Part shown: one piece after another, positions 2,881 through 64,000 of the stretch
How the letters are laid out: each line of letters starts with the position of its first letter
Position numbering within the stretch: position 1 is the stretch's first letter
Assembly: GCA_943359325.1 (NCBI GenBank)
Contig: CALRHD010000002.1
Location: 4,629-68,628, forward strand
Source: Candidatus Uhrbacteria bacterium
GTDB lineage: Bacteria > Patescibacteriota > Patescibacteriia > UBA9934
DNA: 64,000 bases
Reading direction: 5' to 3'
The notes under the pieces: generated by a model
Seen by the model: the letters and a program-made list of their open reading frames with translations, nothing else
Database searches by the model: none
What the model was told of the DNA's origin: nothing
Translations under genes and position numbers: made by a program

Positions 2881-2987
2881 AAAAAAGATGTTAAACAGTA
2901 AATAAAAATCTCCCAATGCGCTCATCATAATAGATGAACGTAGGGAGTACGTATTCATTTTCCTGCGAAGCACGACGGACGTCAAGT

Positions 2988-3022
2988 GTGGATAAGTTTG
3001 TCCACGACTCAGTTGCGGACAT
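2988..3022 (+). repeat. REP-like palindromic element copy 2 (GTGGATAAGTTTG-GTCCACGACTCAGTTGCGGAC-AT)
   Basis: Read directly. It lies between the RAYT start and the radA stop, in the same orientation as copy 1. Confidence 0.85.
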
Positions 3023-4299
3023 TACTTCAATAACTGATCGATTGTCTTGATCGTTTTTGGCGTAATGGCGTTTTTGAGTCCGAGGCGTTCGGCCTCTTTG
3101 AGGCGGCGTTCGAGGTGGGGAACGGTGCGTACTTCGCCGCCGAGGCCGAGTTCGCCAAAAATAACCGTGTCGTCAGGGATTATTTTGTTTGACATTGCCG
3201 ACATGATCGCTGCGGCAACTGCAAGGTCAGCCGCCTTTTCTTTGACCTGCATGCCACCGACGACGTTGAGGTAGACATCTTGATCACCAACTTTGACGCC
3301 CGCACGTTTATTCACAATCGCGAGGAGCATTTGTAGCCGACTCGCGTCGTAGCCAGACGTGCGGCGCACAGGGTTTGGGAAAAGGCTGCGATCGATGAGT
3401 GCTTGAATTTCGACGAGAAACGGGCGTGAACCTTCCATGATGCAGGTGACAACAGACCCAGGGCAGGGGATGCGTTCGGCGAGAAATCGTGCTGAGGGAT
3501 TTTCTACTGTTACCATGCCATGTTCGGTCATTTCGAATACACCGACGTCGTCCGTTGCACCAAAACGATTTTTGCTACAGCGCAAAATGCGGTACGCCGT
3601 GTCGGCATCGCCTTCGAGTGTGAGAAGTGTGTCAACGAGGTGCTCGAGCGTTTTTGGCCCTGCGATTGACCCCTCTTTTGTGACTTGTCCGATGATGAGC
3701 ACGGGCACATTCGCAGTTTTTGCGTAGCTGATGAGTTCGCTCGTTGCCGCACGGACCGCTGTCGGCGTCCCCGGAAATGCATCGGCGTCCTCGACCATCA
3801 TTGTTTGTATAGAGTCAACAATGAGAATGCTCGGTGACATGGTTTTCGCTGCGGCAATAATACTGCCGATTTCGACGGCTCCCGAAAACACAATTGATTG
3901 CATACCAATACCGAGGCGTTCAAATCGCATACGCACTTGCCCCTCGCTTTCTTCGCCAGAGACGTAGTATGAAGGCGTCGACGACGACATTGCCACAGCA
4001 ATCTGCGCGACGAGCGTCGACTTTCCAATACCTGGTTCGCCTGCCAACAAAACAACAGCACCTGGAACAATGCCGCCACCGAGCACGCGGTCGAGTTCAG
4101 CAATATCTGTGGGGCGGTGAGTAATTTTGGTGAAGTTGGTGTTGTCGAGCGCGATCATCGCTGCGGGTGCAGCTTTTGCAGATGAAGTTTGGCGACCCGG
4201 CGTCGTACCACCTTCTGCAATAGTTCCCCAATTTCCGCATTCGGTGCAACGCCCCTGCCATTTGTTAAATTGACTGTCGCACTTGGTACAAGAAAACAT
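3022..4299 (-). CDS. radA: DNA repair protein RadA/Sms
   Basis: N-terminal C4 zinc finger (CTKC...CTEC) is followed by the Walker A motif GEPGIGKST and the KNRFG motif. The C-terminus is a Lon-protease-like domain. Confidence 0.9.
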   Translation of the reverse strand: MFSCTKCDSQFNKWQGRCTECGNWGTIAEGGTTPGRQTSSAKAAPAAMIALDNTNFTKITHRPTDIAELDRVLGGGIVPGAVVLLAGEPGIGKSTLVAQIAVAMSSSTPSYYVSGEESEGQVRMRFERLGIGMQSIVFSGAVEIGSIIAAAKTMSPSILIVDSIQTMMVEDADAFPGTPTAVRAATSELISYAKTANVPVLIIGQVTKEGSIAGPKTLEHLVDTLLTLEGDADTAYRILRCSKNRFGATDDVGVFEMTEHGMVTVENPSARFLAERIPCPGSVVTCIMEGSRPFLVEIQALIDRSLFPNPVRRTSGYDASRLQMLLAIVNKRAGVKVGDQDVYLNVVGGMQVKEKAADLAVAAAIMSAMSNKIIPDDTVIFGELGLGGEVRTVPHLERRLKEAERLGLKNAITPKTIKTIDQLLK

Positions 4300-4320
4300 A
4301 TTTTACGCCCCCTTCACACT

Positions 4321-4356
4321 GTGGATAACTATGTCCTCGACTCAGTTGAGGACACT
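4321..4356 (+). repeat. REP-like element copy 3. It is a variant, GTCCTCGAC-TCA-GTTGAGGAC, in which both stem arms have changed in a compensatory way.
   Basis: Read directly. The flank GTGGATAACTATG is conserved and the stem carries an A>T change paired with a C>A change. It lies between the radA start and the stop of ORF 4355..5812. Confidence 0.8.
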
Positions 4357-5812
4357 ACCGGCACATCGTTGTTGGTCTGACGCTTTCGCTGATGGGCGTG
4401 ACGCAGCAGTGGTTTTTCGCGTCCCATGTTTTGCAGAGCGCCGTCGAGTACACGGTACCGTTTGCGCCGCCAATGCGATAGCTCGAGTCGCCAAACGCCG
4501 TGTTGCACGACGACGACCCTTGCCCTGCGAGTTCAAAGTGCCACGGCTCGTTCGGAATGCGGCAAAACCCATTCGCGAACAGTGTTTGCGTCATGAGGTT
4601 TTGTAGCGTGACGTCGAATTGAAATCCTGTACCCGACCCCTCTGCCCATAAATCGGCAGCGACGTTGTTCGTATGTGTGCAATTGCGTCCGTCGCCATGG
4701 GCAACGAGCCCCGCGATAACTTCGGATTTGCTTATTCCAGAGTACGCATCGGTGAGCGTCCATTTTCCGCTCACTTTGCTTATCACTGTTTTGTCGCTTC
4801 CGTCGACATTACACGTATCAGGACTGCAGTAGCCATTTTTTGCGACACAATTCTCGTAGAAGAGCGTTGCTTGTTTTTGGATGCTACGACTTCCTGACGT
4901 TACACGAATGTTTTTCGCATTTCCAGGATTCAATGCATTACTCGCGGTGTAAAATTTTCCTGCTGCGGCCGTCAATTTCGTGAGGACATCTTTACCGATA
5001 TACGTGTCCCCTGATTTCACACTAACAATGAGATGAGTGCCCCCCCCTCCTACAAGTTGCGTGACATCGTCGCCTTGCACGATAGCAATCGCAGGCATGT
5101 AGTCTGCGAAGTCTTCGAAATCGGCAGTCGCGACGTATTCGATGGTTTTTATTTTGAGAGTTGCGAATTTTACGGTGTGCGGGTCGATGAGAAACGCAAT
5201 AGTATACGCCGACATGAGGAGGACCATGCCCGTTACTGCGTTCACCATACGGGTTTTTGCTTGCTTTACGGCGTCCGCATGACCGCGCGAAAGAATGTAT
5301 TGGAATCCACCGACCATGAGCATGATAATGGCGACGAGTGCCATGGCGACCATGAGAAACCTGTAGAGCGCATCGACATACGATGCGAGGTAGTTTATGT
5401 TCAGATTGCCGTCGGCGTCGTAGGTAAGACCGTTTGAAAAGTCGAGTCCAGGAATGGCGACGTTGAGATTGGGAATAATCGGATTGCGCTTTTCGCCACC
5501 CTCGGTGTTGTCTTCTGTTTCTGCTACTGCCTCTTGACTTGTGATTGTACCCGCACCAACAGGTGCGTCATTCCCTTCGTTGTCCGTGCAGATGAGCGAC
5601 CAGTTGACATTGCCTTTTGTTGCATATGGCGTGCACGCAGTGATGCAGCTCGACATGAGGTTGTTCGCATTTTCTTCGACGGTTCCTTCACCATTCGACA
5701 GGTCTTGATAGACACACGAACAGGTGTATGAATCCTGCATGCAATAAACCGCCGACGCATGCAGCGGTGCGAAAATGAGCAGTGCGGTGATGACGATGAG
5801 AATGCGTTTCAT
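4355..5812 (-). CDS. Secreted, membrane-anchored Cys-rich protein with a C-terminal LAS/M15-type peptidase (VanY-like D,D-carboxypeptidase) domain
   Basis: It has a signal peptide and many Cys residues. A central hairpin of two hydrophobic helices around a charged loop (FLMVAMALVAIIMLMVGGF...RGHADAVKQAKTR...AVTGMVLLMSAYTIAF) resembles TrbC/VirB2-type pilins. The C-terminal NEPWHFEL resembles the EPWH(Y)RYVG motif of M15B peptidases. Its start overlaps dsbA by 4 nt (ATGA). Confidence 0.5.
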   Translation of the reverse strand: MKRILIVITALLIFAPLHASAVYCMQDSYTCSCVYQDLSNGEGTVEENANNLMSSCITACTPYATKGNVNWSLICTDNEGNDAPVGAGTITSQEAVAETEDNTEGGEKRNPIIPNLNVAIPGLDFSNGLTYDADGNLNINYLASYVDALYRFLMVAMALVAIIMLMVGGFQYILSRGHADAVKQAKTRMVNAVTGMVLLMSAYTIAFLIDPHTVKFATLKIKTIEYVATADFEDFADYMPAIAIVQGDDVTQLVGGGGTHLIVSVKSGDTYIGKDVLTKLTAAAGKFYTASNALNPGNAKNIRVTSGSRSIQKQATLFYENCVAKNGYCSPDTCNVDGSDKTVISKVSGKWTLTDAYSGISKSEVIAGLVAHGDGRNCTHTNNVAADLWAEGSGTGFQFDVTLQNLMTQTLFANGFCRIPNEPWHFELAGQGSSSCNTAFGDSSYRIGGANGTVYSTALCKTWDAKNHCCVTPISESVRPTTMCR

Positions 5813-13458: not shown

Positions 13459-14532
13459 ATGAAAGACGAACTCGAAAAACTCGTTGTCGACCTGACTGCT
13501 GCGCTTTCTTCGGTGCACGACACTGCGGCACTCGAAGTAGTGCGCGTAGAATATGTCGGTCGAAAAGGCAGGCTCGCCGAACTCATGAAGGGGCTGGCGG
13601 CGCTTTCTGTTGACGAGAAAAAAGTTATTGGTCAAATTGCAAACAGCGTGAAGGCGCGCGTCGAAGCGGAATTTGCGCGAGTTGAAAAAATGATTGCTGA
13701 CGCCGACGTCAAAGCGCGAATGACGCGCGAATGGCTCGACGTTACGCTTCCGGGAGCGGCGCCAAGTGTCGGGCATCTTCACTTGGTGTCGCAAGCAATA
13801 GAAGACATTACGGATATTTTTCGGCGGCTTGGTTTTGTACGCGCTCGGCACCCAGAAATCGACGGCGATTATTACGCGTTTGAGGCGTTGAACATGCCGA
13901 AGGATCATCCTGCACGAGATGAATGGGAAACGTTTTTTATACGCGACTCTCACAGTGCGGAAGTGATGCAGGGGCAAAAGGGGAAAATGGTGTTGACGCC
14001 ACACACGAGCAACGGGCAAGTACGAGAAATGGAGAAGGGCGTGTTGCCGATTCGTATGATCAGTATCGGAAAGTGCTATCGACGACAGTCGACGGCGCGA
14101 CATTCGCCGATGTTTCACCAGTTCGAAGGTTTGGTCATTGATAAAAAGTCTTCGGTAACGGAATTGAAGGGCGTGTGCGAATATTTTGCAAAGAGTTATT
14201 TTGGTGCCGACCGCACAACGCGGTTGCGCCCATATCACTTTCGTTTTACGGAGCCAAGTTTTGAGTTGGATATTTCGTGCGGCATTTGTAAGGGCGTAGG
14301 AAGCGTTGGTGGTGTTAAGTGTAAATTGTGCAAAGAGGGCTGGCTTGAGTTGGGCGGTGCGGGCATGGTGCACCCGAACGTCATTAAGGCGGGAGGCCTC
14401 GATCCTGACGTGTACGCAGGATTCGCTTTTGGCTGGGGCGTTGAACGCACGATGATGATGCGTGCAGGCGTAAACATCGACGATATTCGCATTTTGTACA
14501 GAAATGACTTGCGATTCATTCGGCAGTTTTAG
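13459..14532 (+). CDS. pheS: Phenylalanine--tRNA ligase alpha subunit
   Basis: Class II aaRS motifs are present: FRRLGF, FTEPSFELD and GAGMVHPNVIKAGG...GFAFGWGVERT. A 4-Cys insertion (CGICKG..CKLCK) sits before motif 3. Confidence 0.9.
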   Translation: MKDELEKLVVDLTAALSSVHDTAALEVVRVEYVGRKGRLAELMKGLAALSVDEKKVIGQIANSVKARVEAEFARVEKMIADADVKARMTREWLDVTLPGAAPSVGHLHLVSQAIEDITDIFRRLGFVRARHPEIDGDYYAFEALNMPKDHPARDEWETFFIRDSHSAEVMQGQKGKMVLTPHTSNGQVREMEKGVLPIRMISIGKCYRRQSTARHSPMFHQFEGLVIDKKSSVTELKGVCEYFAKSYFGADRTTRLRPYHFRFTEPSFELDISCGICKGVGSVGGVKCKLCKEGWLELGGAGMVHPNVIKAGGLDPDVYAGFAFGWGVERTMMMRAGVNIDDIRILYRNDLRFIRQF

Positions 14533-14542
14533 TTATGAACAA

Positions 14543-14676
14543 TTTCTCCCACATAACATACTCCGTTCCTTGTGAAGCCCCGCAGCCGCAGTCCGTACAC
14601 AAGGCCTCGGCTTACGCCGGCCACGGACTGACGGGCGGCGCCTCACGACGTCACGAAGTATGTTATGTGGGAGAAA
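14543..14676. repeat. GC-rich structured intergenic repeat, copy 1 (about 134 bp, ERIC/MITE-like) with perfect 20-bp terminal inverted repeats TTTCTCCCACATAACATACT / AGTATGTTATGTGGGAGAAA
   Basis: Read directly. The core CCCCGCAGCCGCAGTCCGTACA(G)CAAGGCCTCGGCTTACGCCGGCCACGGACTGACGGGCGG recurs at 51934, 59989 and 61416. It lies between pheS and pheT. Confidence 0.85.
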
Positions 14677-14685
14677 TCAGTGATT

Positions 14686-17061
14686 ATGAATAATTTCGCT
14701 TCCTACAATTGGCTGAAAGAATATTGTAAAACGACATTGTCGCCAGAGGATTTTAGTAGTGAGATAAGTTTGCGTTCGATGTCGGTCGAAAAAGTTGACC
14801 ATGTGAGTGAGCGTTTTGCACACATCATCGTCGGCTTGGTGAACGAGGTGCGCCCGCATCCCAATGCTGACAAATTGCGGATTGCAACGGTGAGTATGGG
14901 GAGCGCGGCAGTGGAAATCGTGTGCGGCGGCACGAATCTTGTAGAGGGAATGAAGGTCGCACTTGCGCTTCCAGGATCGACGGTCATCGGCCACGATGGG
15001 CAACGTGTGACGCTCGCCGTGAACACGATTCGTGGCGTAGAAAGTCCGGGAATGTTGTGCGGGCCTGACGAACTTGGTTTTGGTGCCCTTAAAAAAGGCG
15101 CACATGAAATTTGGGATTTAGGTGCGGTGACCGATGCAAAGGCGGGTACGCCACTCGCCGAGGCGCTCGGCATCGACGACGTCATGTTCGATGTTGAGAT
15201 TACGACCAACCGCCCCGACGCAATGGGTATTGTGGGTTTGGCGCGCGAAGCAGGTGCGGCGTGTGGCGCACCGTTTGCATGGCAGCCACCCATTTTTCCT
15301 GTCGCTGCGAATGACATTCCGTTTACGGTCGCGATTGAAGACGCGTCGCGCTGTTTGCGTCAAATGGCGGTTGTCATCGACGGTGTCACGGTCGCACCAT
15401 CGCCATGGTGGCTGCAGGCACGACTGTTGTTGGCAGGTTTGCGACCGATTAACAACATTGTCGACATTACAAATTACGTCATGCTCGAGTACGCCCAACC
15501 GCTTCACGCATTTGATTATAAAAAATTGGATGGTGCAGAAATTCGCGTGCGGCAGGGAAGGGCGGGAGAAAAATTGGTTGCACTCAACGGGAAGGAATAT
15601 GACGTTGAGGGTGTGCTTGTGCTTGCCGATGCAGTGAAGCCGCTCGACATTGCGGGGATTATGGGAGGCGAGCATACAGGCACGACGTCAGAAACGACCA
15701 CCGTCGTACTTTCGGCGTCGGCGTTCGACCATGTGGCGCTTCGCCGAACGTCGCGTGCGCTTCATCTGCAAAGCGACGCGCAACTTTTGTTCGAAAAAGG
15801 TTTGTCGACGGAAGCGCCGCCGTTTGCGTTGGCTCGTGCCGTTGAACTTATTGCAAAAATTGCGGGCGGTCGCGTGGCGAGCCCCGTGTGCGATGAACGT
15901 GTTTCGCCGTATGTACCGATCGTGTTGACGTGCAACCCGCAAAAAATTCGTGAGCGTATTGGCATCGACATTTCCGACGTACGCATTCTAGAAATTTTGA
16001 CGCAACTTGGATTTGCCGTTGATCAATTGCATGGAGCGTGGAGTGTCATCGTTCCGTGGTGGCGCGATCATGATATTGAGGACGCGATCGATCTTTCTGA
16101 AGAAGTCGCGCGCATTTACGGTTATCACGAACTACCCGCAATACTCCCGAGTGGAGTTCCTCCTACAACACCTGAAGACGCAACACTTGTGTGGGAGCGT
16201 TGGTGTAAGCGGTTTTTTGCAGGTGCAGGGTACGACGAATTTTTCAGCAACTCGTTTGTGAGTGCTGACGACCTCGCGCGGTACGGTGAAGACGCTGCGC
16301 AGTCGTATGCATTGTTGAATCCGCTCGCAAGTGATTTGTCGCACATGCGAATGTCGCTCATGCCGTCGATATTGCGTGCGGTAGAGTCAAATCAAGGGCA
16401 TATCGCGTCGGCGAAGTTTTTCGAGTTGTCGCGTGTGTACATTCCTCACGGCAATGACATGCCCGAAGAGCGCATGCAGCTTGTGCTCGGCGAATATGGG
16501 CACGACGACGTGGAAAAAGCATTCATGCGTACGCGCGGCGTGCTCGATGTGTTTGCTGCGCGAACCGGTCTTTCGTTGACGCTGCTTCGCGACGAAACTG
16601 ATGCGCGGTGGCACCCTTCGCGCACGGCGAAAATTATGCACGGCGAGGTGTGTGTGGGGCGCATCGGAGAAATCGCTTTTGCAACGCAAATTGCATTCGG
16701 CATTAATCGGCGCGTTATGGTGCTCGCCCTCGACCTCGAGACACTTTTTTCGTCCATGCATCTCACGCATCGGTATGTTCCCGTGTCTGAATTCCCTTCT
16801 GTTGTTCGCGACCTTTCGATTATCCTCGACGAACGAGCGACGTTCGACGACATTGTGCGATGCGCGAAGAACGACATTGTTGCGAGCGCAGCACTTGTCG
16901 ATGTGTATCGCGGTGCGGGCGTTCCCGAAGGAAAAAAGAGCATGACGGTGTCATTCACCATGCAAGTAGAGAGAACGTTGACGTCAGAAGAAGCAGACAC
17001 CGCGCTCGCGGTGATTAGTGAGAAGCTTGTTTCCGAATTATCGGGTATACTCCGTTCATAA
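14686..17061 (+). CDS. pheT: Phenylalanine--tRNA ligase beta subunit
   Basis: The N-terminus is SYNWLKEY. The protein has the tRNA-binding (OB) domain, the B3/B4 domains and the C-terminal FDVY..K..S.T...T motif. The start is set at MNNFAS, downstream of the repeat. Confidence 0.9.
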   Translation: MNNFASYNWLKEYCKTTLSPEDFSSEISLRSMSVEKVDHVSERFAHIIVGLVNEVRPHPNADKLRIATVSMGSAAVEIVCGGTNLVEGMKVALALPGSTVIGHDGQRVTLAVNTIRGVESPGMLCGPDELGFGALKKGAHEIWDLGAVTDAKAGTPLAEALGIDDVMFDVEITTNRPDAMGIVGLAREAGAACGAPFAWQPPIFPVAANDIPFTVAIEDASRCLRQMAVVIDGVTVAPSPWWLQARLLLAGLRPINNIVDITNYVMLEYAQPLHAFDYKKLDGAEIRVRQGRAGEKLVALNGKEYDVEGVLVLADAVKPLDIAGIMGGEHTGTTSETTTVVLSASAFDHVALRRTSRALHLQSDAQLLFEKGLSTEAPPFALARAVELIAKIAGGRVASPVCDERVSPYVPIVLTCNPQKIRERIGIDISDVRILEILTQLGFAVDQLHGAWSVIVPWWRDHDIEDAIDLSEEVARIYGYHELPAILPSGVPPTTPEDATLVWERWCKRFFAGAGYDEFFSNSFVSADDLARYGEDAAQSYALLNPLASDLSHMRMSLMPSILRAVESNQGHIASAKFFELSRVYIPHGNDMPEERMQLVLGEYGHDDVEKAFMRTRGVLDVFAARTGLSLTLLRDETDARWHPSRTAKIMHGEVCVGRIGEIAFATQIAFGINRRVMVLALDLETLFSSMHLTHRYVPVSEFPSVVRDLSIILDERATFDDIVRCAKNDIVASAALVDVYRGAGVPEGKKSMTVSFTMQVERTLTSEEADTALAVISEKLVSELSGILRS

Positions 17062-17348: not shown

Positions 17349-17384
17349 AATCGCAGAATAAAAATCCGCTTTGTCAAGCAAAAA

Positions 17385-17421
17385 GTGGATAACTATGTCC
17401 ACGACTCAGTTGCGGACATAA
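17385..17421 (+). repeat. REP-like element copy 4 (GTGGATAACTATG-GTCCACGACTCAGTTGCGGAC-AT)
   Basis: Read directly. It lies immediately upstream of the dnaE start, and the track ORF translates it as a spurious MDNYVHDSVADI N-terminal extension. Confidence 0.85.
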
Positions 17422-17444
17422 CGCAAACCCGAAAATCTGTTACC

Positions 17445-21992: not shown

Positions 21993-22175
21993 CTGAAAAC
22001 TTTTGCGTATCGCCGCCATGGTGTCAAAGAAAAATGCACAACTCTCTCCGCACAACATACTTTCGTTGTCATCCTCATAAAAATAGGGATCCATGTTGAT
22101 GCTGTCTGGATTCCCGCCTACGCGGGAATGACAGAAATTGGGAATATGTTGTGGGGGAAGAGGTATAGAAAAATG

Positions 22176-22184
22176 TGCTATAAT
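22176..22184 (+). promoter_or_regulatory. Extended -10 promoter TGCTATAAT whose last base is 9 nt from the ATG at 22193, which predicts a leaderless transcript
   Basis: Read directly. Confidence 0.5.
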
Positions 22185-22192
22185 GCCCTCGT

Positions 22193-23368
22193 ATGGTAAA
22201 AAGCGTGCCCAAAAAGGGTGGGGCAGGGAAGAAGCCGTTATCCCGAAGTTTGCGAATGTATCAACGCATTGCGGTTGCATTTGTTGTAGGAACGCTTGGG
22301 CTTTTGATTGTCGTTCTCTACCTATCCATTTCTCGCGCTACAATTCATATTGTTCCTAAAGCAAAAACCGTCGATGTTACTGTTCCTGTGCATGTTGTGC
22401 CGAATCCGACTGAAGAAGGCGATATGACGGGTGTTGTTGTTGAACAAACGTTTACGAAGGCACAGTCGTTTGCGTTGCCGAGCGAGGGTGGGACGCCTGT
22501 CGAACAAAAGGCGGGTGGTATGGTGACGCTCATTAACAAAACCAACGCACCGCAAACGCTCGTTGCGACAACGCGACTTTTGTCGGAGGAAGGTGTGCTT
22601 TTCCGTATTGATAATTACGTCACTATTCCTGCAAACGGTCAGCTCGACACTACGGTGCATGCCGACGTCACAGGACTTTCGGGCGAAGTGCCGCCTACGC
22701 AGTTCACTATTCCCGGATTGCCCACGTCGCAGCAAAAAGACATTTATGCAGTGAGTGTTGACGCGATGACGGGTGGGGTGAGTTACGTCCGTACATTGTC
22801 GGAACAAGACTTGAACGACGCGGTGACGTCGCTTACCGACAGTATGATTTTGGACAGCAAAGCGACGCTTGCTGCAGGCGTCGATCGTGCGATTTTTCCA
22901 GGCGAAGCATATGTGAGCGACGTTCTTGAGCGTAAAAGTGACACGCAACCCGGAAGCGAGGCGGGGAGTTTTACCGTATCGCTCACTGTGCATGTCGCAG
23001 CGGTGTATTACGACCCTGCGATTCTCACCACCTACGCACAACAAAAACTCGCCGCACAGTTGCCGAGCGAGTACGCTATGGTGACAATGAATACCGAAAG
23101 CATGCAGGTTTCCGTCGACTCTGCTGAAAAGTCGAAAGGTACGGCGACACTTTCGGTGTATCTTGACGGCGTTGGTGCGATTTCGGCAGGCGCAGACGCA
23201 TTTCGCAAAGAGCGTTTCCTTGGCCGTTCGGCACAAGAAGTGATGACGCTGCTCTCTGTTTCGGATGCGATTGCCAGCTCGAGTGTCACTTTCACACCGT
23301 TTTGGCTCAAACGAGTTCCTACGCTTCGTGACCACATCGTTGTTGACATAGAAGAGCCTGCTTCGTAA
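22193..23368 (+). CDS. Hypothetical protein with an N-terminal membrane anchor (391 aa)
   Basis: A basic N-terminus is followed by one transmembrane helix and a large beta-rich, Thr/Val-rich extracytoplasmic domain. Confidence 0.5.
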   Translation: MVKSVPKKGGAGKKPLSRSLRMYQRIAVAFVVGTLGLLIVVLYLSISRATIHIVPKAKTVDVTVPVHVVPNPTEEGDMTGVVVEQTFTKAQSFALPSEGGTPVEQKAGGMVTLINKTNAPQTLVATTRLLSEEGVLFRIDNYVTIPANGQLDTTVHADVTGLSGEVPPTQFTIPGLPTSQQKDIYAVSVDAMTGGVSYVRTLSEQDLNDAVTSLTDSMILDSKATLAAGVDRAIFPGEAYVSDVLERKSDTQPGSEAGSFTVSLTVHVAAVYYDPAILTTYAQQKLAAQLPSEYAMVTMNTESMQVSVDSAEKSKGTATLSVYLDGVGAISAGADAFRKERFLGRSAQEVMTLLSVSDAIASSSVTFTPFWLKRVPTLRDHIVVDIEEPAS

Positions 23369-33614: not shown

Positions 33615-33622
33615 TGAAGTTT

Positions 33623-33656
33623 GTGGATAACTATGTCCACGACTCAGTTGCGGACA
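33623..33656 (+). repeat. REP-like element copy 5 (GTGGATAACTATG-GTCCACGACTCAGTTGCGGAC-AT)
   Basis: Read directly. It fills the whole convergent spacer between the thyX stop and the dcd stop. Confidence 0.85.
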
Positions 33657-34769
33657 TCACATCTTAAAGTGTTTGCTGAGCCGTGGACCACGTTGCCGAT
33701 AGTAGTTTGAGGCAAGTTTGGCGTCGCCGTAGAGAAGTTCGGCGGGGGCGGCGAGGCGTTCGTAGATCATTTTGCAGATGGGTTGGCCGTCGCGCAGCAC
33801 GAAGTCGATGTCGTGGGTGAAAATTTCGAGAACACCCGGCGTGCCACGTATGGCACCTTCTGCACCATACCCAAATCCAGGGTCGAAAAACCCTGCGTAG
33901 TGCGAACGAAATTCGCCTTTGCTCGGGTCGTACGCAGCCATTTCTGCGGCGTACCCGTCGGGAACGCGAAGACATTCTTTTGTTGCGAAGATGTAGAAAT
34001 CTCCTCGGCGCATCATAAATTGGCCGTTCTTTGGGCGCATGATAGGTTCAAAGAATTCTGCAGGGTCATAATCGCGTTTTGCAAAGTCGAGCACGCGACA
34101 CGCGGTCGGGGAGCTTGAGTACCCAATTATGTCTTCGCTTGAAAGGTCAACAGACATCACCACACCGTCTTTGTCGACTGTAGCGCGATCGGCACGATAG
34201 GCGTTTCCCGCAAGGTCGCAGAGCAATTGCGACTGGTCGACGAGTCGGAAATGGTCGGCGTCAGAAAGCCGCGCGTCGCACGTGGCAAAACGCATCTGAT
34301 TGACTCGCTCTCCTGCATCGAGCTTCACAGGAAATGATTTTGGAATAACTTCGAGCCATAACTCGCCCTTGTATCCGCTTGGCACCATGTCGAATCGTGA
34401 AACACCGTCAATGAGAAGACGTGTTTGCAAATTGATACGGCCGGAGGACGACTTGTTGTTTGTGTATGCGTGGACAGCGTCGGGGAGCGACAGCATTTCG
34501 TTTAGCCGCACCAAATAAATGCCGAACAGCTCGAGGGGGTGCTGTAAGTCGCAGCGATACAGCATACCGTCTTTGATAAGTTCGCGAATTGTTTCGCCAC
34601 GGCGTGGAAGAAACGTACCCCGCATGCGGTATACTTCTCCCGAGAGCGACAGGTCGAGTGACGACGGCTGAAGGTGCTCAGTTTTCGCGCCATGAATGTG
34701 CCCCTCGGCCATGAGGGTACGGATATATTGGAGGGGAAGTGCGCCACGAACGTCGATCCAGTTGGTCAT
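33657..34769 (-). CDS. dcd: 2'-deoxycytidine 5'-triphosphate deaminase (long DCD form with a tandem dUTPase-like fold)
   Basis: The motif SSLDLSLSGEV is typical of the dCTP deaminase/dUTPase fold. The roughly 370-aa length matches the DCD (PF06559-type) family. Confidence 0.6.
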   Translation of the reverse strand: MTNWIDVRGALPLQYIRTLMAEGHIHGAKTEHLQPSSLDLSLSGEVYRMRGTFLPRRGETIRELIKDGMLYRCDLQHPLELFGIYLVRLNEMLSLPDAVHAYTNNKSSSGRINLQTRLLIDGVSRFDMVPSGYKGELWLEVIPKSFPVKLDAGERVNQMRFATCDARLSDADHFRLVDQSQLLCDLAGNAYRADRATVDKDGVVMSVDLSSEDIIGYSSSPTACRVLDFAKRDYDPAEFFEPIMRPKNGQFMMRRGDFYIFATKECLRVPDGYAAEMAAYDPSKGEFRSHYAGFFDPGFGYGAEGAIRGTPGVLEIFTHDIDFVLRDGQPICKMIYERLAAPAELLYGDAKLASNYYRQRGPRLSKHFKM

Positions 34770-39065: not shown

Positions 39066-39331
39066 ACTATATTTCAGGACTTTCCCAGTTGTGACGAGTT
39101 TCGATGAACGACGAGTAAAGCTTTCGAGGCGTACAACATGCGTACGTCGAGGAAGTTTACGATGGCGTGAGTCGAAAATCGGCCAACAGGGGAAGTCCTG
39201 TATTTAAAAAGCCCCTCGCGGGGAACAGAGAAAACTATAAACGATTCATGTTTTTTATGCAAGGGGTTGCGAAAAATGCGGGGGATAACCAGCTGGAAGG
39301 TGATGAATCGATAGGGTAGTATGTTTTTACT

Positions 39332-42850: not shown

Positions 42851-42852
42851 CT

Positions 42853-42886
42853 ATGGATAACTCTGTCCACGACTCAGTCGTGGACA
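42853..42886 (+). repeat. REP-like element copy 6. It is a perfect-palindrome variant, GTCCACGAC-TCA-GTCGTGGAC, with the flank ATGGATAACTCTG.
   Basis: Read directly. It lies between the two permease genes. Confidence 0.85.
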
Positions 42887-42896
42887 GATAGTATTT

Positions 42897-51915: not shown

Positions 51916-51933
51916 ATTTTATGTTGTACATGG

Positions 51934-52068
51934 CTTTTCCTGCATGGCATGCTCCACTCCTTGTTCAGCCCCGCAGCCGCAGTCCGTACAGCAAGGCCTC
52001 GGCTTACGCCGGCCACGGACTGACGGGCGGTGCCGAACGACGTCGCAAAGCATGCCATGCAGAAAGAG
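51934..52068. repeat. GC-rich structured intergenic repeat, copy 2. Its terminal inverted repeats CTTTTCCTGCATGGCATGCT / AGCATGCCATGCAGAAAGAG differ from copy 1 by compensatory transitions.
   Basis: Read directly. It lies between the rpmE 3' end and the prfA 5' end. Confidence 0.85.
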
Positions 52069-52100
52069 CGTTACGCCCAGTGTATCCGAACTTCGTGCGA

Positions 52101-59200: not shown

Positions 59201-59980
59201 ATGGCAACAAACGGGGGAGGTTTTTGGCCGCGATGGGACGAGCATAAATTATTTTTTGTATTGCTCGCGATATTGATGGTGTATGCAACGGTGCTCGTAT
59301 TTGTACACATTGAGAAGACGATTGTTGAAGTACGTGGCGTGGGGTTTGCCGATCAAACTGCGCCAACGATTTCGGTGACCGGTGAAGGTAAAGCAAGTGC
59401 GGTGCCCGACATTGCAAAAGTCGATATGATCGTGACGAATAAGGCGGCAAACACGTCGGCGGCACAAAGTGTAAACACCACGGTTATGAATGGGCTTATT
59501 GCGGCTATGCGGAATGCGGGGGTTGCGGAGAAGGATTTGAAAACGTCATCGTATAGTGTGTATCCCGTGTACGATTATGACGTGAGTCCTGCAACGATTA
59601 CCGGCTACGAAGCGTCGCAAACATTGAGTGTGACAATCCGCGATACTGAAAAATCGGGTGCAATTTTGGAAGCGGCAGGCAGCAATGGTGCGACGCAGAT
59701 TGGGAGTCTTCGTATGGAGGTTGACGATGAAACTGACGTGAAGAGCGAAGCGCGAAAGGCGGCGATTGCGGATGCACGCGCTGAGGCCGAGAGTATCGCA
59801 GCGGCGATGGATGCACGTCTTGGACGTGTCGTAAGTTATTACGAGTCAGAAGGTGGAAGTATGGGCTTTTATTACGAAGGGGCGATGTTGTCCGATAGCA
59901 TGAAAGTGGGCGCACCCGACATTGCAGAAGGGGAAAACGAAACGAACATTACGGTGACAATGACATACGCCATTCAGTAA
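59201..59980 (+). CDS. SIMPL/DUF541 (BP26/OMP28-like) periplasmic protein with an N-terminal membrane anchor
   Basis: The motifs ISVTGEGKASAVPDIA and SYSVYPVYDY are typical of SIMPL domains. Confidence 0.6.
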   Translation: MATNGGGFWPRWDEHKLFFVLLAILMVYATVLVFVHIEKTIVEVRGVGFADQTAPTISVTGEGKASAVPDIAKVDMIVTNKAANTSAAQSVNTTVMNGLIAAMRNAGVAEKDLKTSSYSVYPVYDYDVSPATITGYEASQTLSVTIRDTEKSGAILEAAGSNGATQIGSLRMEVDDETDVKSEARKAAIADARAEAESIAAAMDARLGRVVSYYESEGGSMGFYYEGAMLSDSMKVGAPDIAEGENETNITVTMTYAIQ

Positions 59981-59988
59981 ATCTGCAA

Positions 59989-60123
59989 CTCTCCCATCAC
60001 AACATACTCCGCTCCTTGTGAAGCCCCGCAGCCGTAGTCCGTACAGCAAGGCCTCGGCTTACGCCGGCCACGGACTGACGGGCGGTGCTACACTGCGTCG
60101 CAAAGTATGTTATGACGGGAGAG
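59989..60123. repeat. GC-rich structured intergenic repeat, copy 3, with terminal inverted repeats CTCTCCCATCACAACATACT / AGTATGTTATGACGGGAGAG
   Basis: Read directly. It lies between the SIMPL gene and eno. Confidence 0.85.
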
Positions 60124-60146
60124 ATCGGAGAAAATTAGAAGGAGTT

Positions 60147-61415
60147 ATGAAAGAACGTATTGACGTTATTCATGCACACGAAATTCTCGATTCGCGTGGA
60201 AACCCCACGTTGAACGTGACGGTGATGCTCAAAAACGGCCTGCGAGGGAGTGCATCGGTGCCGAGTGGAGCGTCGACGGGAGTTCATGAGGCGCTTGAAT
60301 TGCGAGACGGCGACATGTCGCGGTACCGTGGCAAAGGTGTGCGAAAGGCAGTAAAGAATGTAAATGTGACGATTGCAAAAGCGCTGCGTGGCATGGACGT
60401 TTTTGACGTTCGAGCGCTCGACGACGCAATGCGTATTATCGATGGTACGGAGAATAAGCATGTGCTTGGCGCGAACGCCATTCTCGGCGTGTCGCTTGCG
60501 TGCGCACATGCGGGTGCACGGAGGGCGAACACGCCGCTTTACGAACACATTCGCAATGTGTTCGGGTTACGCTACAACGGGTTTACGCTGCCAACGCCGT
60601 TCATGAACGTGTTTAACGGCGGCCTGCATGCCGACACGAATCTCGACATGCAGGAATTTATTATTATTCCCCACGGATTTAAAAAGTATTCTCGAAAAGT
60701 ACAGGCGGGGAGTGAGATTTTTCATGCGCTTGGTGACGTGCTGCACGCTGATGGGCTCGACACGGATGTGGGGAACGAAGGCGGCTACGCACCAAACGTC
60801 GGCAAAACAGAAGTTGCGCTCGAGTATTTGGCAAAGGCGACAAAAAAAGCAAAATATAAACTTGGTGGTGAAATTGGATTCGGCATCGACGTTGCAGCGA
60901 GTGAGTTCTATGACGCCAAAAAGGACAGGTATATTTTACGGACAGACAGACGGAAATTGAATGGGGGAGAGATGATTGATTTGTATGAGCAGTGGCTGAA
61001 GAAATATCCACTCATGTCGGTTGAAGACGGGCTCGACCAAGACGCATGGGTGGACTGGGCGATGCTCACCAAGCGTCTTGGCAAAAAAATGCTGCTCGTC
61101 GGGGATGATCTTTTTGTAACGAATGTAGAACGAGTGAAAATGGGACTTTCGCAAAAAGTTGCGAACGCCGTGCTCATAAAGCCAAACCAGATTGGTACGC
61201 TCTCGGAAACGATCGATACTATTCTGCTTGCGCAGAAGCACAAATATAAAATAGTTATCTCGCACCGTTCAGGAGAAACAAGCGACACAACGATTGCCGA
61301 CCTCGCCGTTGCGGTGAACGCGCAGTACATCAAGTCGGGCGCACCTTCGCGTTCGGAGCGGCTTTCGAAATATAATCGACTGCTTGAAATTGAGGAGGAG
61401 CTAGATGGAATTTGA
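60147..61415 (+). CDS. eno: Enolase
   Basis: The N-terminus is ILDSRGNPT. The C-terminal motif SHRSGETSDTTIADLAV is present. An AAGGAG Shine-Dalgarno sequence lies 5 nt upstream. The track ORF start at 60018 lies inside the repeat. Confidence 0.92.
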   Translation: MKERIDVIHAHEILDSRGNPTLNVTVMLKNGLRGSASVPSGASTGVHEALELRDGDMSRYRGKGVRKAVKNVNVTIAKALRGMDVFDVRALDDAMRIIDGTENKHVLGANAILGVSLACAHAGARRANTPLYEHIRNVFGLRYNGFTLPTPFMNVFNGGLHADTNLDMQEFIIIPHGFKKYSRKVQAGSEIFHALGDVLHADGLDTDVGNEGGYAPNVGKTEVALEYLAKATKKAKYKLGGEIGFGIDVAASEFYDAKKDRYILRTDRRKLNGGEMIDLYEQWLKKYPLMSVEDGLDQDAWVDWAMLTKRLGKKMLLVGDDLFVTNVERVKMGLSQKVANAVLIKPNQIGTLSETIDTILLAQKHKYKIVISHRSGETSDTTIADLAVAVNAQYIKSGAPSRSERLSKYNRLLEIEEELDGI

Positions 61416-61507
61416 CGCCCCCGCAGCCGCAGTCCGTACGGCAAGGCCTCGGCTTACGCCGGCCACGGACTGACGGGCGGTGCCGAACGACGTCGCAAAG
61501 CATGTAG
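61416..61507. repeat. GC-rich structured repeat, copy 4, which is partial: the 5' arm is missing and it abuts the eno stop codon
   Basis: Read directly. The core and 3' arm are present but there is no outer terminal inverted repeat. Confidence 0.8.
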
Positions 61508-61541
61508 TATAGGGATATACACCATGCTAGTCGCTCGATCG

Positions 61542-63885: not shown

Positions 63886-63923
63886 GTGGGGATAAGTATG
63901 TCCACGACTGAGTCGTGGACATA
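63886..63923 (+). repeat. REP-like element copy 7 (GTGGGGATAAGTATG-GTCCACGAC-TGA-GTCGTGGAC-AT), a perfect palindrome with an inverted loop
   Basis: Read directly. It lies in the lexA upstream region. Confidence 0.85.
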
Positions 63924-64000
63924 CTTGCACAAGAGATTCTTCGTCGCGTAGAGTAGGGGCACAAACATAAAAGCTGTATGCTAAAAATCGTCGAAGCGCC

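Follow-up and report, generated by a model that had tools for sequence, protein, structure and literature searches.

A probable MITE-type family of foldback elements with co-varying arms and a near-invariant apex in an Uhrbacteria-like Patescibacteria genome

A hairpin element of about 135 nt occurs several times in the window, by which is meant the whole stretch of DNA that was analysed (64 kb), and it probably represents a MITE-type family of foldback transposable elements, non-autonomous and restricted to this lineage. We put the probability of this reading at about 0.62. The element is assigned to the MITE type because it is small and non-coding, has inverted ends, is flanked by duplications of about 9 bp, is present in dispersed copies and is missing from the corresponding sites of relatives. 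The covariation of the two arms between copies is confirmed. A preliminary description of this DNA had attributed the kept pairing to selection on a long closing helix, as RNA or as a DNA cruciform, or to regeneration of each copy from a distinct master copy. That interpretation is partly supported and selection on the closing helix is a plausible cause; with three copies at hand, a constraint on the element to fold as a hairpin is ranked first among the causes of the kept pairing. The host is an uncultured, Uhrbacteria-like member of the Patescibacteria whose nearest named relatives are Candidatus Uhrbacteria, and the sequence of the window is also part of contig CALRAF010000003.1 (GCA_943350455.1). 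Genomes of the Patescibacteria (CPR) are very small and densely packed.

Copies and anatomy of the element

The window holds three full copies (c1, c2 and c3), a truncated copy (c4) and a relative (c5), and their coordinates are given in Table 1. Three copies had been counted in the preliminary description; the core is actually found in four, and a fifth element carries the same arms. The exact 36-mer GGCCTCGGCTTACGCCGGCCACGGACTGACGGGCGG is present four times in the window, in c1-c4, and no such match was found in shuffles. A full copy is about 145 bp long and consists of 4-5 unpaired terminal nucleotides on each side, terminal inverted repeats of 20-25 bp, a short second helix and an apical hairpin of about 66 nt. 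The terminal 4-5 nt are not inverted repeats. The arms are 90-100% complementary over 20-25 bp, like the terminal inverted repeats of MITEs, and the element is non-coding and, at 135-145 bp, of MITE size (less than about 500 bp). Six-frame peptides of the element had no match among 5.8 billion protein clusters; when the four open frames of the core were translated and concatenated they had none there either, and no open reading frame called over other copies was found. Two types of arm are distinguished by their ends, type A (CTCTCCC..CACAACATACT) and type B (CTTTTCCTGCATGGCATGCT).

Table 1. Positions of the elements, their parts and their flanking repeats in the window
Feature	Position	Strand	CM (bits)	Description
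c1 left 9-bp repeat	14530-14538			TAGTTATGA; includes the stop codon of pheS and a duplicated pheT ATG
c1, full length	14539-14680	+	161.8	Between pheS (13459-14532) and pheT (start 14686); arm type A
c1 hairpin	14542-14677			4 unpaired nt per side (ACAA / TCAG)
c1 apex module, GC-rich	14577-14642	+		Holds the exact 36-mer (14603-14638); near-invariant among copies
c1 right 9-bp repeat	14681-14689			TGATTATGA; contains the authentic pheT start codon
c5 left 9-bp direct repeat	22028-22036			AGAAAAATG; perfect match to the right copy (9/9)
c5	22037-22166	+ (orientation ambiguous)	22.5	Helix 22042-22162
c5 right 9-bp direct repeat	22167-22175
c2, flagged copy	51933-52069	+	163.1	Flanked by the rpmE (L31) terminator and by prfA (RF1), which are both - strand; arm type B (type A with 7 compensated transitions); without direct repeat
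c2 apex	51968-52034
c3 left flanking 9-mer	59975-59983			CAGTAAATC; 6/9 match to the right 9-mer in the register defined by c5
c3, full length	59984-60127	+	155.3	Between a SIMPL-domain gene (end 59980) and enolase (60147-61415)
c3 hairpin	59989-60123			Arm type A with a compensated 1-bp insertion
c3 apex	60023-60089
c3 right flanking 9-mer	60128-60136			GAGAAAATT
c4, 5'-truncated	61417-61519	+	72.8	Model positions 40-103

The truncated copy c4 starts at the apex boundary (GCCCCCGCAG), 2 nt past the enolase stop codon (TGA, 61413-61415). It retains the apex and a c2-like 3' inner part as far as AAAGCATG (61505), and is then continued by a third arm variant that has no partner. The outer arms of c5 are those of the family (CTCTCTCCGCACAACATACT / ATATGTTGTGGGGGAAGAG), and a second helix is common to both (TTGTCA/TGACAG in c5 vs TTGTGA/TCACGA in the family), but the apex of c5 differs from that of c1-c4 and is more AT-rich. 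The same ends with a different interior are the usual signature of ends that are recognised by one transposition system. It was also observed that c3 and c4 form direct repeats on either side of the enolase gene, and that the C-terminus of the enolase has the same length as those of relatives (LDGI vs LLGI).

Every full copy folds as one long imperfect hairpin with 48-55 pairs. The folding z scores of the three full copies against shuffles are -10.2, -7.6 and -4.9 on the + strand and -10.8, -8.5 and -8.2 on the - strand, and the fold of the - strand is more stable than that of the + strand by 11-17 kcal/mol (11 vs 3 G-U pairs). The core was checked by eye for a hammerhead (CUGANGA...GAAA) and for group II domain V; neither fits, and Rfam agrees. 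At E values up to 10, the sole Rfam 15 match around c2 is unrelated and lies outside the element.

The NCBI, ENA and Logan assemblies, which are independent, are identical over the elements, and therefore the element is not an assembly artefact; no strain-level variants of the copies were found between the NCBI, ENA and Logan contigs. Two short-read contigs of the same organism (L008 and L153) end within copies, as is expected of a multicopy repeat. The repeats thus break short-read assemblies of the host organism.

Pairing of the arms and covariation between copies

The arm sequences quoted in the preliminary description are present at the coordinates given there, and the perfect closing match that it gave for c1 was borne out over 21-25 bp (TTTCTCCCACATAACATACT / AGTATGTTATGTGGGAGAAA). 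For c2 (51934-52068), with arms CTTTTCCTGCATGGCATGCT / AGCATGCCATGCAGAAAGAG, the claim that pairing is kept stands, but the count of about 17/20 is replaced by 18 Watson-Crick pairs, one G-T and one C-A among 20 pairs. The seven differences between the 5' arms of c1 and c2 are all transitions and each has its complementary counterpart in the 3' arm (7/7), just as had been described. Two extra transitions in the 3' arm are uncompensated and leave the one G-T and the one C-A. All arm substitutions between these two copies are transitions (16/16), and in the inner helix GTGA/TCAC of c1 has become GTTC/GAAC in c2, which amounts to two compensated transversions. The third copy had been described as c1 with two changes and more were found. 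Its arms have gained one compensated base pair (T on the 5' side, A on the 3' side), a T-A pair at the outer end is replaced by C-G, which is again compensated, and two transitions are left uncompensated.

The check for covariation that had been proposed was run on c1-c3 with RNAalifold, and both sides were changed in 13/54 pairs, in a sample of three sequences that are related by descent and from which the structure itself was derived. When counted on the RNAalifold structure, the 13 changed pairs compare with 4.5±1.7 in 500 shuffles, none of which reached 13 (0/500), and with 1-3 in six slid controls in which the partner was moved by 1-3 columns. In the alignment of c1-c3, 95.7% of cells are paired. 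The covariation is well above both controls and the earlier claim that the two ends are not decaying independently holds.

Tandem pentamers in the arm have changed together, with ACATA ACATA in c1 (14550-14562) and GCATG GCATG in c2 (51940-51953), and there are four pentamers per element. This symmetry is not used as evidence because, by our own count, its chance is about 0.2 given four changed A's.

Target-site duplications

The preliminary description had also called for a search for target-site duplications, and these were found at three copies. The repeat of c5 is placed 5 and 4 nt outside the helix and is perfect over 9 bp (null P about 1e-4; about 0.002 in a separate test). The repeats of c1 match at 7/9 positions (null P about 0.015), and the match at c3 is weak on its own (null P 0.078). 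The null was drawn from random window positions over the same nine registers, with P(≥6) 0.078, P(≥7) 0.015 and P(9) 1e-4. A direct repeat was looked for at c2 in the same register (±1) and none was found. Repeats of about 9 bp in a single register are present at c5, c1 and c3, as in MITEs, and the targets of insertion are very short AT-rich intergenic spacers of which about 9 bp are duplicated. At c1, the repeat duplicates the old stop-start junction; the element-free sites of relatives read TAG..ATGAATAAT (TAG..ATGA).

Two observations concern the genes beside these repeats. The left repeat of c1 contains a second ATG at 14535, 2 nt past the pheS stop codon, and a 52-codon open reading frame that starts at this ATG runs through the entire c1 hairpin and stops at TAA 14691-14693, just beyond the pheT ATG at 14686. 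This frame could relay translational coupling over the insertion; it is one of three frames that is open, and this may be chance. After c5, the duplicated 9-mer continues into TGTGCTATAAT, which resembles an extended -10 site and has its end 7 nt ahead of ATG 22193 (22167-22195), and the gene downstream of c5 may have a leaderless mRNA or one with a very short leader.

Insertion sites in relatives and distribution

All three full copies (3/3) sit where the spacers of the nearest relatives are without such an element. The pheS-pheT spacer, which holds c1, is 153 nt here vs 1-8 nt in the 11 closest GTDB relatives. One relative (L005) has a SIMPL-enolase spacer of 1 nt, and the L31-RF1 (rpmE-prfA) spacer is 228 nt here vs 69-95 nt in two others (L154 and L157). 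Since the spacers of relatives are without the element, the arms are part of the insert, and one of the conditions under which the preliminary description would have been wrong, that the outer arms are simply part of a palindromic target, is ruled out. Five elements in 64 kb, together with element-free sites in relatives, agree with the multicopy nature of MITEs.

Several collections were searched for further copies. A covariance model of c1-c3 found no copy in 1.3 Mb of related Patescibacteria loci and none in the closest enolase and RF1 relatives; altogether, about 1.8 Mb of related genomes yielded no copy. Exact 28-, 22- and 23-mers of the core had 0 matches each in GTDB representative genomes, JGI metagenomes and IMG/VR, and c2 had no blastn match among plasmids and phages. 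The arm pattern CACAACATAYT N70-100 ARTATGTTRTG was found at 57 loci in JGI metagenomes, none of which is related to the element by the covariance model; a few of these loci hold long hairpins, which are unrelated, and L108, which was inspected, is a perfect palindrome of much greater length. A scan of the genomes of relatives for hairpins with a loose energy threshold was too unspecific for use. Judged by these sequence searches, the element is apparently confined to the host lineage and absent from the collections searched.

The GC skew is positive throughout the window, so the + strand is taken as the leading strand, and the four copies that bear the core (c1-c4) all lie on it in one orientation (4/4). 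Relative to the flanking host genes, c2 is antisense to c1, c3 and c4.

Other hairpins were observed at the same sites in related genomes. The pheS-pheT spacers of related Patescibacteria hold unrelated long hairpins (L013, 11074-11211; L032, 11074-11241; L067, 11062-11205), as do those of L080, L071, L070 and L084, and in about a dozen further related genomes this spacer is 330-430 nt long. Unrelated long hairpins have thus been acquired independently at the pheS-pheT junction in many related lineages, and the junction is either a recurrent insertion site or one of few places that tolerate insertions. An enolase relative of 89% identity (L002, 1090-1310) has a SIMPL-enolase spacer of 230 nt with a different long hairpin at the site of c3 (-90 kcal/mol, z -3.8).

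The invariant apex and the mosaic structure of the copies

The apex of about 66 nt is 75% GC in a window of 51.5% GC. Across the four copies it differs by two substitutions; in addition, c1 lacks one base and c4 has one more C at the 5' edge. Along the hairpin, divergence is graded outwards from the apex and affects about 7-40% of positions in the middle and up to 40% in the outer arms. The copies are also mosaic. Arm type A is found with two apexes (c1 and c3 vs c5), and one apex is combined with arms of type A, of type B and, in c4, with a third 3' arm. It is at the base of the apex hairpin that c4 is truncated and that c5 ceases to resemble c1. Conserved ends and a variable interior are expected of a classical (DDE) MITE. 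An invariant apex with diverged ends, as seen when c2 and c4 are set against c1 and c3, is the opposite of this, and therefore the family is not fully explained as a classical MITE.

The apex could be the real functional unit, with any long enough paired stem as its carrier, and could have been moved or copied between foldback scaffolds; a linked possibility is that a closed stem is retained for holding the upstream stop codon close to the downstream start codon. We consider this improbable on balance, although it would account for the three arm types on one apex, for the same arms with a different apex in c5 and for the breakpoint of c4. The apex would then be a structure-specific recognition hairpin for a mobilising enzyme on single-stranded DNA, or a conserved RNA module. 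If this were true, a closed stem would let insertions into the 1-8-nt operon spacers of tiny genomes stay compatible with translational coupling.

Other repeats and mobile genes

The window contains a second repeat, D2 (TGTGGATAAnTATGTCCACGACTCAGTTGCGGACA), in seven copies (2220-2261, 2987-3028, 4320-4361, 17384-17425, 33622-33663, 42852-42893 and 63887-63928). Each copy is a short imperfect palindrome that follows a DnaA-box-like TGTGGATAA, and differences between D2 copies replace the A-C mismatch in the stem with T-A or A-T. One copy is located between lexA and metK, and two flank the gene of a 228-aa Y1 transposase (2242-2928, - strand), whose best NCBIfam match is the REP-associated tyrosine transposase (E 6e-14, below the cut-off). 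By sequence, D2 and this transposase look like a REP/RAYT system in a Patescibacteria genome.

An unrelated long hairpin of 126 nt is located just upstream of secE (39075-39200; -62.8 kcal/mol on the + strand and -45.2 on the - strand). TATTT adjoins it directly at either end and could be a 5-bp target duplication; a terminator-like - strand hairpin follows at about 39208-39225. The 126-nt hairpin may represent another foldback element in single copy. About 1.3-2.7 kb left of the window start (L149, 15624-16952), a large serine recombinase with Resolvase, Recombinase and zinc-ribbon domains adjoins recG and may mark an integrated element.

What keeps the arms paired

We infer that the copies descend from different source elements, with arm types A, B and possibly C. 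In these sources, the arms would have been constrained to remain complementary as they evolved, with the apex kept nearly unchanged. The likeliest reason would be that the element has to adopt a single closed hairpin fold, which may be needed as single-stranded DNA during mobilisation or as RNA. As RNA, it would keep an insertion inside an operon compact and bring the flanking stop and start codons together. The stem would need pairing and not a particular sequence. Selection on the hairpin is favoured because compensation is found outside the ends, the c1/c2 spectrum is all transitions and the leftover mispairs are of the wobble type.

The same pairing could have been kept by mutation only, a cause that the preliminary description did not name, when a nascent strand switches template to the other arm or a folded-back strand undergoes mismatch repair, and the element would then still be a MITE with no structural selection on it. 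It is known that template switching creates and maintains hairpins and gives several "compensatory" substitutions at once in a single event (PMC8794818, PMC5453318). The c1 stem, uninterrupted and perfectly paired over its 21-25 bp, would suit such a process, and the adjacent compensated transversions (GA/TC to TC/GA) look like one event. However, the 16/16 transitions and the leftover G-T and C-A mispairs point to stepwise change via wobble pairs, although few events and transition-biased mutation could mimic this, and the near-invariant apex beside arm divergence of 40% is left without explanation; we regard templating as an unlikely cause. It is likewise doubtful that base pairing plays no role and that each arm type binds its own transposase, with copies from distinct masters; left and right ends would then have to fit one and the same protein, and subfamilies with diverged transposases would show "compensated" differences automatically. 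That arm type A is found on the unrelated apexes of c1 and c3 vs c5 is as expected for ends that are recognised by a protein, and since the 3' arm of c4 starts c2-like, type B is not one decayed copy. The four A-to-G changes at the same two positions of the tandem pentamers also resemble a changed binding motif (chance about 0.2). Coevolution of transposase and ends is opposed by the compensation in the inner helices, which are beyond any plausible end-binding site, and by the fact that the entire element pairs and not the ends alone. The ends of insertion sequences are usually imperfect repeats, whereas the arms here pair at 18-21 of 20-21 positions. Furthermore, c2 is without a target duplication and no transposase with matching ends was found in about 78 kb of this contig, where only the RAYT-like Y1 transposase and a serine recombinase are present. 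These two results, like the terminal nucleotides that are not inverted repeats, also count against the MITE reading itself.

An invariant apex on a co-varying closing stem is also the classic signature of a functional RNA, and the host could have selected the element as a cis-regulatory or processing hairpin or as a small RNA in which the apex is functional and the closing helix only pairs. The transitions that make up all c1-c2 arm changes and the different G-U content of the strands are in line with this, and c1 and c3 begin 8-9 nt past the upstream stop codon. Nevertheless, a host RNA is quite improbable. No Rfam family reaches its gathering score in the whole window and no promoter-like site was found in or beside the scanned copies c1-c4. 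The element occurs in both orientations relative to host transcription (c2 vs c1, c3 and c4), which weakens a function at the level of host RNA, and the better-folding - strand is not the one that would be transcribed at 3/4 of the core copies, which fits no simple RNA model. The element-free orthologous sites of relatives and the target duplications indicate that it spreads as DNA; neither the fixed orientation nor the orthologous conservation of a host cis-regulatory element was found. A REPIN-type element moved by the Y1 transposase at 2242-2928 would agree with the RAYT-like gene in the window, with the long hairpin form of the element, with the one leading-strand orientation of its four core-bearing copies and with the compensated changes that are common in REPINs (PMC3116915). 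This is very improbable, as the RAYT is flanked by the other repeat, D2 (2220-2261 and 2987-3028), whose local alignment with the element gives p values of 0.47-0.96, and the element is not a doublet of short palindromes. Y1/HUH chemistry, as in the IS200/IS605 family, produces no target-site duplication, and the 9-bp direct repeats of three copies are not expected of it; inverted REPs of the element flanking the RAYT and sites free of duplications, the marks of a REP-RAYT system, are not what is seen here. A likeness between the element and D2 that is suggestive by eye (CCACGGACTGAC vs CCACGACTCAG) was not above that of shuffles.

If the copies are MITE-type foldback elements, as we prefer to read them, such small genomes can carry an actively spreading hairpin element in essential operons, namely at pheS-pheT, at rpmE-prfA and on both sides of enolase. 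A constant apex with a free but paired stem would be a natural experiment on structural selection vs templated mutation vs coevolution of transposase and ends. No paper that links MITE-type repeats to the Patescibacteria (CPR) was found in the literature collection that was searched.

Comparison with known systems

To our knowledge, compensated arm variants and an invariant GC-rich apex are not features of Correia/NEMIS or ERIC elements. According to one source (PMC10969869), the Correia/NEMIS elements of Neisseria and the ERIC elements of enterobacteria are intergenic, 100-155 bp long, have inverted ends of about 26 bp and occur in either orientation in transcription units, where their mRNA hairpins are processed by RNases. 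As far as that description goes, the element here resembles them in being small and intergenic, in its inverted ends, in occurring in either orientation relative to transcription and in its hairpin fold (PMC10969869). QMITE2 of Coxiella burnetii, as summarised in the same source, is an intergenic element with a central core, 7-9-bp direct repeats and terminal inverted repeats that span 23-29 bp, and its transcript is predicted to form one long stable hairpin (PMC10969869). Judged by this description, QMITE2 has the same layout as the element here, but a core of 113-145 nt compared with about 66-95 nt. The element here also differs from QMITE2 in that its very GC-rich core is far more conserved than its ends and in that its host is a small-genome member of the Patescibacteria.

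REPINs are likewise long hairpin-forming intergenic repeats in which compensated changes have been reported, and a RAYT-like gene is present in the window here (PMC3116915). However, REPINs conserve the REPs of their arms and vary in the middle, whereas the element here has an invariant middle and variable arms (PMC3116915). In addition, the RAYT here is flanked by another repeat and target duplications are present. The bcr1 element of the Bacillus cereus group, as summarised in one source (PMC3184786), is about 155 bp long, has short AT-rich direct repeats, varies in position between strains, is transcribed and keeps a long double-stranded structure through compensatory base-pair changes. By that description it is like the element here in size, in flanking direct repeats and in compensated pairs, but its direct repeats are 5 bp long compared with about 9 bp here (PMC3184786). 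Compensated arms have thus already been described for REPINs and bcr1, and within the known class of MITE-like repeats that form hairpins the element is a new member, specific to its lineage.
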